A DNA stretch of 62,068 nt, the filler included, from Candidatus Woesearchaeota archaeon (lineage in GTDB: Archaea; Nanobdellota; Nanobdellia; Woesearchaeales; BM511): NCBI GenBank assembly GCA_023266675.1. It is 5 parts of 5 records of this genome, joined end to end, with 100 filler letters (N's around TTAATTAATTAA, not from the genome) between each part and the next. Parts side by side here need not be neighbours in the genome. Positions count along the whole stretch, not along the records: positions 1 to 21,924 come from JAHFPP010000015.1; 4 more parts are not named here. The stretch is one strand, 5' to 3'. The position numbers and the translations under genes were made by a program. This document shows positions 1,354 through 58,273 of the stretch, in pieces. Position 1 is the stretch's first letter, and each line of letters opens with the position of its first letter. The notes below the pieces were generated by a model. That model was not told where the DNA came from. It did not search any database and saw only the letters and a program-made list of their open reading frames with translations.

Positions 1354-1704
1354 ATGTTTCCAGGCGTAAATAAGCGACAGATGGACCAGATGATGAAAAA
1401 GATGGGTATCCAGCAGCAAGAAATAGATGCCAAGCAAGTCATTATAAGATGTGAAGACAGGGACATCATAATTGAAAGACCGCAAGTGTCAAAAGTCAAT
1501 ATGATGGGTCAAAAAACCTATCAAATAGTTGGTGAAGAGCATGAAAAAATGCATAACACCATGCCTGAGATTAATGACGATGATATAAAAACGGTTATGG
1601 AGCAGGCTGGCGTTGACAAAATGAAAGCCAAAGAAGCTCTTCTTTCAACAAAAGGCGACATCGCAGAAGCAATAATGAACCTGACTGAAGACGAGCAGAG
1701 TTAA
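1354..1704 (+). CDS. nac: nascent polypeptide-associated complex protein
   Basis: MMKKMGI, VIIR, GQKTYQIVG NAC domain plus C-terminal UBA (DIKTVMEQAGV..GDIAEAIMNL). Confidence 0.93.
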   Translation: MFPGVNKRQMDQMMKKMGIQQQEIDAKQVIIRCEDRDIIIERPQVSKVNMMGQKTYQIVGEEHEKMHNTMPEINDDDIKTVMEQAGVDKMKAKEALLSTKGDIAEAIMNLTEDEQS

Positions 1705-1749
1705 GAATTATATCGACACCTTTTTATATTCTCAAGCCATACTTAATTT

Positions 1750-2226
1750 ATGGTTGAAATTTTAGCTGAATTTGACAACGCAAAGAAGCATTTGAAGCTT
1801 GCAGACCATATGTTAACAATGACTTATCCAGTAGTAAACGACCCGAAACTTCTTTTGTCAGTAATTGAAAACCTTAATTTAACGTTCTCTTCAGCAATAT
1901 CCGCTGTGTTAATGTATGAAAGAGATTTAAGACAGATTCCTCCATATCATGACACAATTGATGGAAGACTTGACTTTTTTAAGAATAAATCTGCTGAAAA
2001 GTTTAATATATCACCTAATTACATAAAAATGATTGAGGAAATAAAGGATCTTGTTCAGGAGCATAAAGAGTCTCCGATTGAATTTTCAAAAAAAAACGAA
2101 TATGTTATATGTTCAGATGAATTTAAAAGATTAAAGACAATAAATATTAAAGAGATGAAAGAGTATATTGCCAAAGCAAAGCTTTTTATAGCAGAAATCT
2201 CAAACATTATAGAGGCTAAGAAATAA
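1750..2226 (+). CDS. hypothetical all-helical protein (possibly HEPN-like), apparent paralogue of 2330-2791
   Basis: AKKHLKLADHMLTMTYP aligns with AREELKRVDHLIYVSLK of the next gene. Confidence 0.7.
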   Translation: MVEILAEFDNAKKHLKLADHMLTMTYPVVNDPKLLLSVIENLNLTFSSAISAVLMYERDLRQIPPYHDTIDGRLDFFKNKSAEKFNISPNYIKMIEEIKDLVQEHKESPIEFSKKNEYVICSDEFKRLKTINIKEMKEYIAKAKLFIAEISNIIEAKK

Positions 2227-2333
2227 TGAAGGAATCGTTAGATGACGCAAGGGAAGAGCTTAAACGTGCAACCTTTTACAAAAATGTTGAACAAAATATG
2301 GCGGACTTAAAAGTCCACATGGTGACAATATGA
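2226..2333 (+). pseudogene. 35-codon ORF: synonymously divergent duplicate of the first 14 codons of 2330-2791, reading through a repeat element
   Basis: MKESLDDAREELKRATFYKNVEQNMADLKVHMVTI*; starts in a TAATG overlap with the upstream stop and ends in an ATGA overlap with the real start. Confidence 0.7.
2269..2320 (+). repeat. dispersed double-hairpin element, copy E1
   Basis: CAACCTTTTACAAAAATGTTG-AACAAAATAT-GGCGGACTT-AA-AAGTCCAC. Confidence 0.75.
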
Positions 2334-2791
2334 AAGAATCATTAGATGATGCACGTGAAGAGCTAAAGCGTGTTGACCACTTAATCTATGTAAGCCTGAA
2401 ATATACAAGAACAGTAGATGTTTTGCTTAATGTCATAAAGAGACTTATTGATGCATATGATTTTGCAATTGATGCCATACTGGGCTATGCACAGGAGAAG
2501 GGTATGCTTGAAGAGGATATCCCTACAAATCCTCTTTCAAAAGCTGACCTCATACTTAAAAAATTCCATGATCCTGTAATTAAGGATAATATTGAACTTT
2601 ACCTGCTTTTTAGGAAGATTGTTAAGGCAGATTATGAAAGATTCAATGAATACCGTAGGCACGTAACTTTAAAAACAATGGTTGATAATAGGGATATTGA
2701 AATAAAAATTGATAACATCACAGAATATTATAATATAATAAAGGAATTCGTAAAATATATTGACAATCTTATAAACGAAGTAAAAGAGTAA
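2330..2791 (+). CDS. hypothetical all-helical protein (possibly HEPN-like)
   Basis: 153-aa ORF, GGTGA SD at 2321, DHLIYVSLKYTRT and EYRRHVT motifs. Confidence 0.75.
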   Translation: MKESLDDAREELKRVDHLIYVSLKYTRTVDVLLNVIKRLIDAYDFAIDAILGYAQEKGMLEEDIPTNPLSKADLILKKFHDPVIKDNIELYLLFRKIVKADYERFNEYRRHVTLKTMVDNRDIEIKIDNITEYYNIIKEFVKYIDNLINEVKE

Positions 2792-2800
2792 ACAAAAGCC

Positions 2801-3577
2801 ATGACACGTTTCGTCGTTATAGCATCTGGAAAAGGAGGTGTAGGAAAGACCACAACAGTTATCAATCTAGGAACTGCTTTGTCTAATTTTGGGCGTGATG
2901 TTATTATTCTTGACGCAAATATTTCTACGCCAAACATGGGCCTTCACCTTGGAGTGCCTAGCGTGCCTGTAACACTTAATGATGTTTTTGAAGGAAGGAA
3001 GAAAATTAAAGATGCTGCATATCTCCACCCTTCAGGACTTAAGGTAATCCTTTCAAGCATATCAATGGAAAAGTATCATGAAGAACATATTAGTAAATTA
3101 AAAGAGGTTATTGATGATCTTGAAGGAGCATCTGAAGTAGTTATAATTGACGCTGCAGCTGGTTTAGGACGCGAGGCAAAAACAGCCATCTCTGTTGCTG
3201 ATGAAGCAATAATTGTAACAACGCCTGACATACCTTCTGTAACTGATGCCTTGAAGACAATAAAAACAGCTGAGAAAGTTGGCACAAAAGTGATTGGTAT
3301 AGTTCTGACAAAAGTCAATAATGATAATTTGGAAATGACAATTAAAAATGTCGAGACTATTCTTGAAAAGCCTGTTATAGGTGTAATACCTCATGATAAT
3401 GCTGTTAGAAAATCATTATATCTAAAAAATCCTGTAAATTATACTCATCCTTCGTCAGCAGCATCAATTGCTTATAAAAAACTTGCCTCAAAATTGATAG
3501 GAGAAAAATATGTTGAATCAGTTGAAGAAGAGGAACCTTTGCATAAGTACATTCTAAGACGTCTTGGGCTGATATAA
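2801..3577 (+). CDS. minD: archaeal MinD-family ATPase
   Basis: Deviant Walker A SGKGGVGKTT, DAN, VIIDAAAG, C-terminal amphipathic tail YILRRLGLI. Confidence 0.9.
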   Translation: MTRFVVIASGKGGVGKTTTVINLGTALSNFGRDVIILDANISTPNMGLHLGVPSVPVTLNDVFEGRKKIKDAAYLHPSGLKVILSSISMEKYHEEHISKLKEVIDDLEGASEVVIIDAAAGLGREAKTAISVADEAIIVTTPDIPSVTDALKTIKTAEKVGTKVIGIVLTKVNNDNLEMTIKNVETILEKPVIGVIPHDNAVRKSLYLKNPVNYTHPSSAASIAYKKLASKLIGEKYVESVEEEEPLHKYILRRLGLI

Positions 3578-4562: not shown

Positions 4563-4841
4563 TTAATTGTTCTGCGCTTCGTCGTCGCCTGAGTATGATG
4601 GAACAGCTGATTTTGAGATTATCATTACGTCGCCCATAGCTTTTACAAGCTGGTGCGGCACGATAACGCCTTTAGCGTTTCCAAGCACATTTGCCAAAAA
4701 TGAGTTTTTGGTTGCTCGTACTCTCCATCCAAAGACTTTGTTTGATGTGACAATTGATTCTTCAACATCACCAAAGTAGTCTCCGCCGTCTGTAAATACC
4801 TTCATATTGTAAGTTTCACTTATTTTTTTCATCTTAAGCAT
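4563..4841 (-). CDS. PRC-barrel protein (CdpB-like archaeal cell-division family)
   Basis: MKVFTDGGDYFGDVEE...GVIVPHQLVKAMGDVMII PRC-barrel pattern; start moved to ATG 4841 after GGGAGGGG SD. Confidence 0.85.
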   Translation of the reverse strand: MLKMKKISETYNMKVFTDGGDYFGDVEESIVTSNKVFGWRVRATKNSFLANVLGNAKGVIVPHQLVKAMGDVMIISKSAVPSYSGDDEAQNN

Positions 4842-7816: not shown

Positions 7817-7876
7817 CAACCTTTTAGAAAAGCTTGAGTAAAACAGTTCGGACTATCTCATTTTTAGAGATAGTCC
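7817..7876 (+). repeat. dispersed double-hairpin element, copy E2
   Basis: CAACCTTTTAGAAAAGCTTG-AGTAAAACAGTTC-GGACTATCTC-ATTTTTA-GAGATAGTCC (10-bp perfect stem). Confidence 0.65.
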
Positions 7877-7974
7877 TTAGCCTCGAGCGTCAACGGACGA
7901 AACGGTTGGGTCACTGGACATTTGGACATGCATGCGGCAAACCTATTTAAAGCAAAACCTCCTTTCATTTAAGT

Positions 7975-21924: not shown

Positions 21925-22024
21925 NNNNNNNNNNNNNNNNNNNNNNNNNNNNNNNNNNNNNNNNNNNNTTAATTAATTAANNNNNNNNNNNNNNNNNNNN
22001 NNNNNNNNNNNNNNNNNNNNNNNN
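21925..22024. other. artificial contig linker
   Basis: 100 nt of Ns around TTAATTAATTAA (stops in all six frames). Confidence 0.97.
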
Positions 22025-30738: not shown

Positions 30739-30756
30739 GGGCTCGTGGTCTAGTGG
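30739..30756 (+). repeat. exact 18-bp duplicate of the tRNA-Val 5' end
   Basis: GGGCTCGTGGTCTAGTGG identical to 30834-30851. Confidence 0.9.
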
Positions 30757-30757
30757 T

Positions 30758-30808
30758 GACCTTTTAAAAAAGCTCAAGCAAAACACGGCGAATTCAAAAG
30801 AATTCACC
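30758..30808 (+). repeat. dispersed double-hairpin element, copy E3
   Basis: GACCTTTTAAAAAAGCTC-AAGCAAAACAC-GGCGAATTC-AAAA-GAATTCACC. Confidence 0.75.
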
Positions 30809-30833
30809 TAAATTTAGAATCAAAATCATTGAA

Positions 30834-30965
<132 letters not shown>

Positions 30966-30969
30966 ATAT

Positions 30970-31029
30970 GGTGTCGTTTAAGCCAAGCTTAAGCGACTTT
31001 GTTTTGTTTAACCTTTTCTTAAAAGGTTA
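30970..31029 (-). repeat. dispersed double-hairpin element, copy E4
   Basis: Minus strand: TAACCTTTTAAGAAAAGGTTA-AACAAAACAAA-GTCGCTTAAGC-TTG-GCTTAAACGAC-ACC. Confidence 0.72.
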
Positions 31030-43458: not shown

Positions 43459-43558
43459 NNNNNNNNNNNNNNNNNNNNNNNNNNNNNNNNNNNNNNNNNN
43501 NNTTAATTAATTAANNNNNNNNNNNNNNNNNNNNNNNNNNNNNNNNNNNNNNNNNNNN
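43459..43558. other. artificial contig linker
   Basis: N-run with TTAATTAATTAA. Confidence 0.97.
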
Positions 43559-49711: not shown

Positions 49712-49811
49712 NNNNNNNNNNNNNNNNNNNNNNNNNNNNNNNNNNNNNNNNNNNNTTAATTAATTAANNNNNNNNNNNNNNNNNNNNNNNNNNNNNNNNN
49801 NNNNNNNNNNN
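49712..49811. other. artificial contig linker
   Basis: N-run with TTAATTAATTAA. Confidence 0.97.
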
Positions 49812-55401: not shown

Positions 55402-55902
55402 CTATTTTTTGTTTCTTAACCAATCAATTATCGCATACGAAAATAGCGCTAATACCCCGCCAATAAAGAACCATAATGGCACGCTTTGTGTCCAAGGTGA
55501 CGACGCTTGTACTGCTTCTGGTGCTGCCCTAAGCATCATCGGTGCAGCCTGTTTTGCTGCCATTAAGCTTGGAGCTGCACCAATTGTGTTTTCCATGTTT
55601 AAGCTTCGAATAAAAGTTATGATAGCGCTTCCAATAACTATAACCCCGAATGCCGGAAACAATTTTTTTAATTTGTCAAAAATGCCAATTTCATCCTTAG
55701 GAGCGATGATTATATACTTATTTGCGAGGGAATAATGGTTTACTTCTTTACCTTTTTCTGAGTAATGAAATTCGTCAATATCAACTAATTTTACTTCAAC
55801 AAGCTGCTTTAAATTGTAATGAACTGTTGGTAAAGGAATGTTTAATTCTTCAGCTATCTTTGTCTCTGTAGAATGCTTGGTTTTTGATAAATGGTCAAGT
55901 AT
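55402..55902 (-). CDS. C-terminal part of the ArsR HTH regulator begun at 229-1; two TM helices
   Basis: Open frame LDHLSKTKHSTETKIAEELNIPLPTVHYNL..FHYSEKGKEVNHYSLANKYIIIAP..TM..WFFIGG. Confidence 0.8.
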   Translation of the reverse strand: MLDHLSKTKHSTETKIAEELNIPLPTVHYNLKQLVEVKLVDIDEFHYSEKGKEVNHYSLANKYIIIAPKDEIGIFDKLKKLFPAFGVIVIGSAIITFIRSLNMENTIGAAPSLMAAKQAAPMMLRAAPEAVQASSPWTQSVPLWFFIGGVLALFSYAIIDWLRNKK

Positions 55903-56002
55903 NNNNNNNNNNNNNNNNNNNNNNNNNNNNNNNNNNNNNNNNNNNNTTAATTAATTAANNNNNNNNNNNNNNNNNNNNNNNNNNNNNNNNNNNNNNNNNN
56001 NN
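55903..56002. other. artificial contig linker
   Basis: N-run with TTAATTAATTAA. Confidence 0.97.
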
Positions 56003-56380: not shown

Positions 56381-57298
56381 TTATCCTGCTGATGCTGTGA
56401 ATTCAACTGTACCATTACAAAGACCAAACGGATTATTAACTGGACTAGTGTAAAGCTGCCAATAAGTAGTATTCACTAAAGCTACTCCATTTACAGTTTT
56501 AGGAATAGAAACTCCAGAAACATTCTGAGAATAGCTGCTTAAATTGGTTTTAGCATTAAAATCCGCAGAAGAATTCACTGAGAAACGCTCATTATCTATA
56601 GTAATATTACCAAACTGACAAAACATGGAATAATTAGTACCCGCCGCCTTATTACTACCTCCATACCCAAGAACACTAACATTAATCCTCAAATTACCAA
56701 TATTACTGATATTAACACTAACATTCGGCGAAAAATCCGCCAAAACCATATTACCATAATCAATCAAAGAAGTGACATTCAAAGCATAAAAACCCTGAAT
56801 GGATGTAGAATTTTGTCCACTCGAAGTAAAGTTATAATTGTCTCTAACAGTTGCATTACAAAGCCAGTTTGAGCCGTTGTTGGCATAATACCAAACATTA
56901 AATGCGCAAGTATAATTTGCATAATACCCGCTCTGAGAGAGATTAAGACAGCTATTATTTGTATAATGTGTGTTATTATTATCTGGAGAACTAAAATTTA
57001 CAGTATTATTGTCCCATAAAGTTGCGTTAACACTAACAATATCAGAATAGCCATTCCAATCGTGCAAAGAAACGTTACATCTTACAATTTGAGTTGCTCC
57101 TGCGGTCAATAGAATATTTTGATCAATTCTAATAATATCAATTGAAGGGTATGCGTTAGTGACGTTAACACGTGTAGAAACGTTAACATAATCATAATTG
57201 TATGCTGAAGAGTATGTAAATAGGATTAAAGAACTAAAAAGTACTAATACTAACAAAAATACTGTTTTTTTATATTCCACGAAACCCACTAAGTACAT
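56381..57298 (-). CDS. secreted, N-glycosylation-sequon-rich beta protein, paralogue 2
   Basis: Signal peptide, many N-x-S/T, conserved Cys, C-terminal GLCNGTVEFTA. Confidence 0.85.
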   Translation of the reverse strand: MYLVGFVEYKKTVFLLVLVLFSSLILFTYSSAYNYDYVNVSTRVNVTNAYPSIDIIRIDQNILLTAGATQIVRCNVSLHDWNGYSDIVSVNATLWDNNTVNFSSPDNNNTHYTNNSCLNLSQSGYYANYTCAFNVWYYANNGSNWLCNATVRDNYNFTSSGQNSTSIQGFYALNVTSLIDYGNMVLADFSPNVSVNISNIGNLRINVSVLGYGGSNKAAGTNYSMFCQFGNITIDNERFSVNSSADFNAKTNLSSYSQNVSGVSIPKTVNGVALVNTTYWQLYTSPVNNPFGLCNGTVEFTASAG

Positions 57299-57358
57299 TA
57301 TTAGTATAGTGGTTTTTATATTTTGTTATTTTATAAGCTTGGGATAAGATAATAGAGC

Positions 57359-58273
57359 TCATCCTGAGCTAGCTGTGAATTCAACAGTACCATTGCAAAG
57401 ACCAAATGGATTATTAACTGGACTAGTGTAAAGCTGCCAATAAGTAGTATTTCCCAAAACAATACCATCTAATGTCTTAGGAATAGAAATCCCATTAATG
57501 TTTTGAGAATAACTACTCAAATTAACTTTAGAATTGAAATTATCAGCTGGATTAGTTGAAAAACGTTCATTGTCGATAGTTATATTACCAAACTGACAAA
57601 ACATGGAATAATTAGTACCTGCCGTCTTATTACTACCTCCATACCCAAGAACACTTACATTAATCCTCAAATTACCAATATTAGTTATATTAACACTAAC
57701 ATTCGGCGAAAAATCCGCCAAAACCATATTACCATAATCAATCAAAGAAGTGACATTCAAAGCATAAAAACCCTGAACAGAGGTAGAATTTGATAAACTA
57801 TCGGTATGATTTGACAAATCCATAACAGTTGCGTTGCATAACCAGTTTGAACCATTATTGGCATAATACCAAACGTTGAAATAACATGAATAATTTACAT
57901 AAAATCCATTTTGGGAGGTATATGTGCAGTTTGTATTTGTATAATGTGTATTATTATCATCTGGAGAGCTAAGATTGACATTATTATTATCCCAAAAAGT
58001 AGCATTGACAACAGATATATCAGAATATCCATTCCAATCATGCAAAGAAACATTACAGGTGATATTATGCGTAGCTCCTGCAGTTAAAAGTATATTTGGT
58101 GTTACAATTACTGTATCTATTACTGGATAGGGGTTTGTAACATTCACCCGTGATGTTGCATTGAAGATGTTAGATGAATAAACTGATGAATAATTTAACA
58201 ATAAAGTAGCAACTATAATCAATAATAACCCAAATATCTTACTGTAATTATTTCGTCCCACACTTACCACCAC
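57359..58273 (-). CDS. secreted, N-glycosylation-sequon-rich beta protein, paralogue 1
   Basis: Highly similar to 56381-57298 over the mature region. Confidence 0.85.
   Translation of the reverse strand: MVVSVGRNNYSKIFGLLLIIVATLLLNYSSVYSSNIFNATSRVNVTNPYPVIDTVIVTPNILLTAGATHNITCNVSLHDWNGYSDISVVNATFWDNNNVNLSSPDDNNTHYTNTNCTYTSQNGFYVNYSCYFNVWYYANNGSNWLCNATVMDLSNHTDSLSNSTSVQGFYALNVTSLIDYGNMVLADFSPNVSVNITNIGNLRINVSVLGYGGSNKTAGTNYSMFCQFGNITIDNERFSTNPADNFNSKVNLSSYSQNINGISIPKTLDGIVLGNTTYWQLYTSPVNNPFGLCNGTVEFTASSG

Follow-up and report, generated by a model that had tools for sequence, protein, structure and literature searches.

Two silently diverged copies of a gene start around a member of a hairpin element family in a Woesearchaeota genome

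In a stretch of 62,068 nucleotides (nt) from the genome of a Candidatus Woesearchaeota archaeon (GenBank assembly GCA_023266675.1), the whole of which we refer to as the window, the first 43 nt of a conserved protein-coding gene, here called gene C, occur twice—once as a truncated copy 1 next to the stop codon of the upstream gene A, and again as copy 2, the beginning of the intact gene C—with a 61-nt element, E1, lying between the two. The copies differ at seven positions, all of them silent, and E1 belongs to a family of small two-hairpin elements many of which stand beside duplicated gene ends in this genome and, in other archaea, within tRNA and rRNA genes; which family is in itself the larger result. 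As to the locus, the explanation that we prefer, and to which we give about an even chance, is that the element may have entered together with a surrogate gene start from another lineage, much as integrative elements do at tRNA genes.

The two gene starts and the element between them

An earlier note on this DNA, made from the sequence alone, had claimed seven differences in 43 nt, all synonymous, and that count proved correct letter for letter. The copies (Table 1) agree at 36 of the 43 positions and both translate as MKESLDDAREELKR; the differences fall at 2231, 2237, 2246, 2250, 2252, 2261, and 2264, the longest identical run common to both is 8 nt, and their local alignment reaches a score of 51, whereas the highest among 100 shuffles is 21. 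In 400,000 simulations the chance that seven of seven random changes would be silent was 2.5e-6 if the changes were uniform and 2e-5 if they were transition-biased, because of which improbability the neutral decay of a target duplication is excluded at 2226-2372; the note's argument that a decayed target-site duplication would not be purely synonymous is thereby upheld. The silent-site difference between the two copies amounts to 0.75.

The element had been said to begin exactly where copy 1 ends, and the first conserved base of the family alignment is indeed C2269, the nucleotide following that copy. Reading on from copy 1, a frame of 35 codons traverses E1; this frame is the only one across the 61 nt, within which no separate gene is encoded. 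Its stop codon, TGA (2331-2333), overlaps the start codon of gene C (2330-2332) in the sequence ATGA (2330-2333), just as the TAA of gene A (2224-2226) overlaps the first ATG (2226-2228) in TAATG (2224-2228). Both overlaps, together with the frame that they delimit, had been described beforehand and are confirmed, with a functional role that is only putative. The 35-mer matched no protein family at significance, the best Pfam E-value (0.071) failing the cut-off. Within the element, hairpin 2 folds by RNAfold at -7.8 kcal/mol versus -3.8 for shuffles; the folding of 2200-2400 as a whole is not notable (z = -1.05). The GGTGA of the tail looks like a ribosome-binding site of the Shine–Dalgarno kind, and the tails of two further family copies situated before start codons contain AGGA and GAGGTGA. 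Over positions 1-21924 neither E1 nor the other elements matched any Rfam family at E ≤ 1, the only matches in that span being the archaeal RNase P RNA at 763-1083 (RF00373, 150.8 bits) and a weak snoRNA-like one.

The only close relative found in the collections is a single metagenome contig of 1095 nt (L021), whose protein C is 88% identical; the next nearest has 68% identity in that protein. L021 carries the element at the same gene start, with a 3' half and a tail orthologous to those of E1: its hairpin 2 shows GGGC/GCCC where E1 has GGAC/GTCC, a change in both arms of the stem, its tail reads TTGGTAGAAAAG at the position of E1's tail, and its palindrome loop holds extra hairpins. The left repeat of L021, for its part, is only ATGAAAGAATC, the junction lying 11 nt into the gene as opposed to 43 nt in the window, and the counterpart of the 35-codon frame reads MKESNLFRNTRKQSFLCPENNNFLGG up to its stop, with nothing conserved past MKES. 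A left junction that differs in this manner beside the same element and tail fits, as far as the sequences go, an independent joining of one incoming unit. The silent-site differences between the window genome and L021 are 0.67 for gene A, 0.76 for gene C, and 0.54 for the MinD-like gene farther downstream, which values are saturated, so that the histories of the two flanks are not comparable. The 0.75 between the copies is, moreover, about equal to the 0.76 of gene C, and the attribution of the two starts to different strains, as put forward in the note, therefore understates the distance. On the upstream side of the start codons only a loose similarity near GG-rich motifs was seen by eye (3 of 10 bases here, 6 of 10 in L021), on account of which we dropped the argument that the repeats end precisely at the gene start. 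The other relatives' loci that were read at this junction lack both the element and the repeat, the stop of gene A there adjoining or overlapping the start codon of gene C.

Table 1. Positions of the gene starts, the element, its parts, and the other features of the window.
Feature	Position	Strand	Description
Contig C47	1..21924		contig of the genome that holds the finding
Gene A	1750..2226	+	158 codons; from the list of open reading frames
Copy 1	2226..2268	+	first 43 nt of gene C, in the native place beside the stop of gene A, truncated by the element: ATG AAG GAA TCG TTA GAT GAC GCA AGG GAA GAG CTT AAA CGT G
35-codon frame	2226..2333	+	MKESLDDAREELKRATFYKNVEQNMADLKVHMVTI, then stop; copy 1 read on through the element
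Element E1	2269..2329	+	61 nt, one family copy; nhmmer E 4.1e-6 (seed profile), 6.9e-4 (25-copy profile)
Conserved 5' module	2269..2298	+	imperfect palindrome CAAC-C-TTTT / ACA / AAAA-T-GTTG (2269-2289), then AACAAAATA (2290-2298)
Hairpin 2	2297..2321	+	stem GGACT (2303-2307)/AGTCC (2312-2316), loop TAAA, outer TATG/CATG closure
Locus-specific tail	2317..2329	+	GGTGA (2321-2325) 4 nt before the ATG of gene C
Copy 2	2330..2372	+	first 43 nt of the intact gene C: ATG AAA GAA TCA TTA GAT GAT GCA CGT GAA GAG CTA AAG CGT G
Gene C	2330..2791	+	153 codons; conserved protein of unknown family; from the list of open reading frames
Second family copy	7817..7908	+	same contig as E1; long subtype; no flanking repeat
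Third family copy	30757..30833	+	30739..30833 with its repeat; tRNA gene 30834-30932 follows
Fourth family copy	30958..31029	-	downstream of tRNA gene 30834-30932, in the opposite orientation; end 30958 approximate

The element family in this genome and among the archaea

BLAST of 2201-2400 against the genome yielded no second copy, and exact and 3-mismatch searches returned the element itself alone; the family emerged after a DNA search of the 401 genomes of the order had given short matches to the first half of the spacer, which proved to share a motif, and profiles had then been built from own-genome copies. In this genome (G000)—of 1.22 Mb, 34% G+C, and 83 contigs, and rated 96% complete—the profile search identified 39 copies at E ≤ 1. 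The family has a 30-nt 5' module, composed of an imperfect palindrome plus AGCAAAAC (consensus CAACCTTTTAAGAAAAGCTTGAGCAAAACA), in which the stem of the palindrome is conserved whereas its loop can expand into a nested stem-loop, as happens in L021 and in other genomes. There follows a second hairpin, variable in sequence and constant in shape—over the 39 copies, the 40 nt after the module fold at a mean of -10.0 kcal/mol versus -2.4 for shuffles, and in 28 of them at -8 or below—and then a tail that differs between loci. The left end of the family is sharp, the right end varies in sequence and length, and the palindrome is internal to the 5' module. Four copies lie in the window, at 2269, 7817, and 30757 and, on the minus strand, ending at 31029; beside the third, 30739-30756 equals the first 18 nt of the following tRNA gene (30834-30851), with 18 of 18 identical.

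Fifteen of the 39 own-genome copies are flanked by a direct repeat that scores above all 100 shuffles, the rule being that the left repeat copy end no more than 6 nt from the element's first base; most of the repeats copy an end of the neighbouring gene. In ten cases the repeat simply duplicates the gene end or flank beside the element, and in five it belongs to a tandem array, so that the prospect raised in the note, namely that no other copy genome-wide might be associated with such duplications, did not materialise. The flanking repeats measure 12-64 nt in the scan and 6-8 nt at two copies inspected by eye, with none at the others. The duplicated pieces include, besides the tRNA start at 30739-30756, tRNA 3' ends that break in the T-loop (contigs C30, C11, and C52), starts of protein genes as recognised by eye (ATGAAATC at C37 and ATGCCA at C9), and protein-gene ends (C1, C58, and C66); altogether the family occupies at least 10 different gene ends in one genome. 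At the tRNA genes of C11 and C52 there are tandem arrays with repeated partial gene ends, which arrays fit repeated entry at a rebuilt target. The same gene-end layout recurs in other phyla (loci L092, L076, L055, L172, and L182), with one more example, on which no conclusion rests, in the unpublished genome G370 (L029). Among 30 distinct copies in five further genomes of the order we found tRNA-end repeats and no new repeats of protein-coding sequence.

Four remnants of protein genes that lie past stop codons, and are thus out of reach of translation, were compared by hand and still resemble working alleles. RVRSKD and GKELEFEIV have three silent changes (GTA/GTT and AGG/CGT included) and one silent change, respectively; the other two show replacements: DRNKGNNNSGF versus DNNQGNNNSGF, each followed by two stops, and ADTFSRLQKKK versus AETFSRLQKKK, each followed by one. 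All four retain their stop codon, and none has a frameshift in its coding part.

In other genomes, members of the family are situated as introns. At L150 and L078 the element lies in the T-loop of a tRNA gene, without duplication and with the 5' cut exactly before its first base, and ends in TGAAAG or TGAAAC; TTCA/TGAA forms the 4-bp central helix of a bulge-helix-bulge motif of which the T-stem is the outer helix, and removal of the element restores a normal T-arm (worked by hand for L078). At L136 the element occupies the canonical 37/38 site of a tRNA-Trp(CCA), and at L051, a Woesearchaeota locus (JAAOYE010000013.1), the 16S rRNA gene is interrupted by a family copy of about 100 nt between GACTGAAA and CTTAAAGGAATTGG, inside the universally conserved 16S stretch GAAACTTAAAGGAATTGG. 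The interrupted tRNA genes of these other genomes were not found by ARAGORN, and deletion scans found them only in part; in the present genome, deletion of the element in silico rebuilt a tRNA at four of the 39 copies, and only where a repeat or an adjacent intact tRNA made the rebuilding trivial. Here ARAGORN reported only 21 tRNA genes, a low number for a genome rated so complete, and missed several that adjoin elements (30834-30932 and the genes on C52 and C11), because of which many tRNA genes in this genome are probably interrupted at unusual places.

As to the distribution of the family, an exact 16-nt core was present in 61 of the 401 genomes of the order—one of the 61 being the unpublished G245—compared with one of 401 for a reversed-pattern control, and the window genome, with 15 core matches, had the most of any. 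A 23-nt pattern (AAGCTTTTTAAAAAAAGCTTGACCAAAA), searched in one genome per prokaryotic species, matched at least 127 stretches, and among the matches listed the record titles name Woesearchaeota, Iainarchaeum/Diapherotrites, Micrarchaeota, Altiarchaeota, Undinarchaeota, Nanoarchaeia, Parvarchaeota, Aenigmarchaeota, Methanosarcinales, Methanophagales, and metagenome-assembled genomes (MAGs) of Thermococcus. That pattern is also a high-copy repeat at contig ends, beside GC-rich hairpins, in a few MAGs of gut Clostridia (loci within L038-L161, e.g., the JAGARU01 contigs), for which occurrence both a common origin and coincidence are possible. The literature that we searched contained no description of this motif family.

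Two further observations concern the elements themselves. A long subtype, in which hairpin 2 is followed by a conserved sequence ending in TAGTCCTTAGCCTCGAGCGTCAACGGACGAAACGGTTG, occurs at C33, C44, C47:7817, C58:4363, C83, C8, C34, and C52:985, and may represent either a small RNA or the element at its full length. Another family of hairpin repeats (GGACGCAGAAAATGC TTTTT GCATTTTC...) often stands directly to the left of copies of the first, its sites in G000 being C79:1440-1471, C73:4807-4837, C17:9140-9171, C8:3238-3261, and C58:4275-4301.

How the second gene start may have arrived

For 2226-2372 we propose a single insertion, by which a small two-hairpin element that encodes no protein came to lie 43 nt into gene C. 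Copy 1 would be the resident gene start, left beside the stop of gene A, and copy 2 would have come as one unit with the element and its leader from a lineage where the element already stood before the gene; the left joining would have taken place at the element's first base, and the right one by homology or at a short shared core. Only silent sites would differ because both starts would have diverged as parts of two working genes, and gene C would stay whole because a second 43-nt copy, behind the element's leader with its GGTGA, follows the element. It is the foreign origin of one copy, the identity of the foreign one, and the mode of joining that we infer. In favour of the proposal count the silent-only divergence here, the remnants past stop codons that retain the same or nearly the same peptide, the differing left junction of L021 beside a shared element and tail, the tandem arrays at tRNA targets, tails that bring GG-rich motifs of their own ahead of start codons, and the behaviour of archaeal integrative elements.

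Archaeal integrative elements offer the nearest comparison. According to PMC3293823, they rebuild the target gene from their own copy, with the attP/attB mismatches inherited, and in the Caldiarchaeum tRNA-Thr locus a fragment of the 5' part of the tRNA is followed by a recombinase-bearing element of 1.8 kb and then by the full tRNA, which has gained an intron. Elements of the SSV1/pNOB8 type and the Caldiarchaeum locus have in common with ours a partial gene end, an insert, and a rebuilt full gene in which mismatches are kept, along with tandem arrays at one target and an insertion linked to the gain of a tRNA intron. Examined as a surrogate gene end, the locus does show a direct repeat on both sides of E1 and one full gene kept, but neither an integrase in or beside the insert nor one fixed attachment site; and unlike the SSV1/pNOB8 type, whose members measure kilobases, encode an integrase, and have one fixed target each, the present family consists of gene-less elements of 50-110 nt that have at least 10 targets in one genome, the starts and ends of protein genes among them. 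Phage 21 and e14 at icd of E. coli reportedly supply a substitute gene end with mostly silent differences from the original; yet those concern the 3' end and are complete prophages with a known integrase, whereas here the 5' end and 61 nt are involved.

The process called homology-facilitated illegitimate recombination, which occurs in naturally transformable bacteria and yields deletion or duplication, likewise joins one end by homology and the other at a non-homologous point, but is not tied to the end of an element and is not known from these archaea. With miniature inverted-repeat transposable elements (MITEs), repetitive extragenic palindromes (REP), and palindromic elements of the IS200/IS605 kind (PATE), the family shares its shortness, high copy number, hairpins, patchy occurrence among genomes, and location both in and between genes, but differs from them in having no terminal inverted repeats, one defined end, repeats of variable length, and no Y1 transposase or TnpB. 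Insertion as a MITE or by a transposase does not fit, since there were neither two defined ends with terminal inverted repeats nor a fixed short target duplication; and we rejected a PATE or REP, since neither the Y1 transposase (PF01797) nor TnpB (PF07282) had any match in the 96%-complete genome and the left flanks end, by eye, in unrelated bases instead of a fixed target of 4-5 nt.

A number of observations weigh against the proposal. Copy 1, unlike the other remnants, sits in an open frame positioned for translation, which circumstance leaves room for selection in place. The G+C content at third codon positions (GC3) is 0.278 in gene A and 0.275 in gene C, against a genome mean of 0.30, and gives no import signal or compositional break. 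Outside this locus the changes number about six silent (one of them stop-to-stop) to four replacement where about one in four would be silent by chance, so that the silent bias is weak; and at L110 the order is the opposite, with the complete tRNA next to the palindrome and the partial copy next to the tail, so that the polarity is not absolute. Recombination between sequences so diverged is expected to be rare. The collections, with their one close-relative contig, yielded neither an allele resembling a donor's nor, for this species, one that lacks the element. As to enzymes, the two tyrosine recombinases of the genome (PF00589) are encoded on contigs C57 and C73, none being in or beside E1, and neither was tied to the family by any test; nor can one fixed-site enzyme explain at least 10 different targets. 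The C57 recombinase is Xer-like and, by our own reading of the sequence, adjoins topoisomerase VI genes. Any mechanism must cover a sharp left end that is the 5' splice site, a variable right end, and repeats ranging from none to 64 nt, for which the candidate routes, given here unranked, are cleavage of the donor DNA at the palindrome, a recombinase that takes its guidance from the gene end brought along, and an intermediate derived from RNA. The note had likewise supposed an element-assisted joining of alleles: the existence of a true family, the gene-end repeats, and the junction of L021 speak for it, whereas neither donor, nor element-free allele, nor enzyme came to light; its core inference, that two alleles met at the element, is accordingly the best available reading and is not proven.

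The first alternative, which we regard as unlikely, assumes an old duplication in place, that is, an insertion in the common ancestor with L021 that was accompanied by a long target duplication—through a staggered break or a replication template switch—after which copy 1 was kept by selection on a peptide, the product being a 35-codon frame coupled to the stop of gene A, such as a small protein with the first helix of C. With that history the presence of the element at the same locus in L021 agrees, as do a silent divergence between the copies equal to that between the genomes, a frame that starts in TAATG, stays open for 35 codons, and ends in ATGA, and a GC3 without sign of import; nor would any exotic recombination be necessary. 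Yet the small frame is not conserved in L021 past MKES and belongs to no significant protein family, the change from 11 to 43 nt or the reverse would need a precise gain or loss of 32 nt directly at the first base of the element, and at C1 and C58 the peptides of the remnants are preserved even though stop codons precede them.

An improbable alternative is a one-sided allele replacement, in which an ordinary insertion with target duplication was followed by homologous recombination with a diverged relative that overwrote copy 1, the tract ending at the element because homology stops there. This sequence of events would explain silent-only differences in untranslated remnants without a special joining step, and the conserved 30-nt module could act as a stretch of identity between lineages. 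It requires, however, homologous recombination between lineages saturated at silent sites, leaves the different left junction of L021 unexplained, and finds no compositional break at the element.

Very improbable, in our estimation, is the removal, at the level of the RNA or the ribosome, of the 104 nt that separate equivalent points of the copies, whether by the archaeal splicing endonuclease at a bulge-helix-bulge or by a bypass from CGT 2265-2267 to CGT 2369-2371; C would then exist in two isoforms, one truly starting at copy 1 and the other at copy 2, and selection would act on both copies. The family does resemble archaeal bulge-helix-bulge introns, in that its members lie in tRNA T-loops (at L150 and L078 with the element's first base as the 5' splice site), at position 37/38 (L136), and in 16S rRNA (L051), with the motif at their borders; and of the features of a programmed bypass such as that of T4 gene 60 or the mitochondrial byp elements, in which take-off and landing codons agree, a stop comes straight after take-off, and a hairpin stands there, the locus shows identical codons (CGT and CGT) and a palindrome behind the first. 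But E1, unlike those introns, interrupts nothing, and its locus contained no convincing bulge-helix-bulge, that is, none with a 4-bp centre and at least two outer plus at least two inner pairs, the best seamless 104-nt candidate having a 4-bp centre, three outer, and no inner pairs, although scans of E1 and of the other repeat-bearing copies return many chance matches in such AT-rich DNA. The codon after the would-be take-off is GCA and not a stop, and gene C, complete downstream with its own GGTGA, has no need of any removal. What known archaeal introns have in common is structure and not, as in this family, 30 nt of sequence conserved from phylum to phylum.

The weakest alternative, an assembly chimera of two co-occurring strains, is scarcely credible: a metagenome bin of low depth (word depth 5.5) and a window of five N-joined contigs would admit one, but the longest shared run of 8 nt is far under any assembly word, so that a false join would have no cause, L021 shows a structure of this kind in a separate data set, and the Logan contig of run X1 (3457 nt) matches 1500-3200 (1701 nt) with 0 differences and 0 gaps. 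That contig answers in part the concern of the note about a misassembly of two strains: the arrangement is reproduced, but X1, the only run in which its sequence was present and the likely source of the window, may be the window's own source sample, in which case the agreement is that of a second assembler and not of a second sample; an artefact peculiar to one assembler is thereby ruled out, whereas an effect inherent in the sample is not. Runs X3, from the same study, and X2 held no long piece over the stretch and are uninformative on absence. A diversity-generating retroelement and a mobility reverse transcriptase were also rejected, the differences between the copies including C/T and G/T in both directions instead of being confined to the adenines of one copy, and the genome's only reverse transcriptase, on contig C15, scoring best against the Drt2 antiviral model (315 bits, under the cut-off of 390).

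Transposition of tRNA introns has reportedly been proposed in the Thermoproteales. Introners are intron-generating transposons of algae and fungi, and the family is like them in being a mobile element that is excised as an intron from genes into which it has inserted and in having target duplications at its borders, but unlike them in that introners need spliceosomal splice sites and a eukaryotic host; PMC11782384 names introners. How tRNA and rRNA introns arrive in archaea is, according to the 2026 Asgard preprint bioRxiv 10.64898/2026.10.13.758758, an open question. Tentatively, and with more doubt than we attach to the proposal for the locus, we suggest that the family might be a vehicle of archaeal intron gain: a protein-less element, mobile across phyla, that enters with a copy of a foreign gene end. 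On landing in tRNA or rRNA loops the element would be cut out by the splicing endonuclease of the host; 2226-2372 would be an intermediate of entry frozen in a protein-coding gene, and the silent-only repeat would mark the meeting of two lineages at the element's first base, that is, at the 5' splice site.

The family is a traceable candidate for such arrivals, having a 30-nt tag and a sharp end at the 5' splice site and leaving insertion footprints—the gene-end repeats—whose two halves can be compared. If those halves do come from different lineages, the element marks DNA of distant relatives that was stitched into tiny, symbiont-type genomes, essential genes included, which origin would bear on gene exchange in such genomes. 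For annotation, it follows that the element gives rise to short frames like the 35-mer as by-products, that the partial tRNA copies beside elements should not be taken for genes, and that many tRNA genes in genomes of this kind may be missed.

Neighbouring genes and other features

Gene A is a distant paralogue of gene C (BLASTP, 26% identity, E 5e-4), and neither matched a Pfam or NCBIfam family. Gene C was matched in 58 of 61 related genomes, and its protein contains the strongly conserved stretch ELKRVDHL(I/V)(F/Y)VSLKYTRTVDV. The gene order on C47, NAC - A - C - MinD-like, recurs in most of the forward-oriented relative loci examined (L002-L020).

The five contigs of the window are joined by N runs around TTAATTAATTAA linkers at 21925-22024, 43459-43558, 49712-49811, and 55903-56002. 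Positions 1-119, at the start of the first contig, are identical over 119 nt to 55766-55884, at the end of another, in what is probably a contig-end overlap from the assembler. Two direct repeats of about 300 and 275 nt, each with a 978-nt period and 77-83% identity, occupy 56383-58097 and look like tandem paralogous genes.

Elsewhere in the genome, the reverse transcriptase (426 residues) lies beside a D12-class adenine methyltransferase (C15:377-1657 and 2076-2738; L162). The recombinase of C73 is a 415-residue tyrosine integrase that, within C73:2900-4900, is accompanied by small unknown genes and adjoins an intron-bearing tRNA gene (4685-4781), after which comes one copy of each of the two hairpin families, the whole being a possible integrated island.

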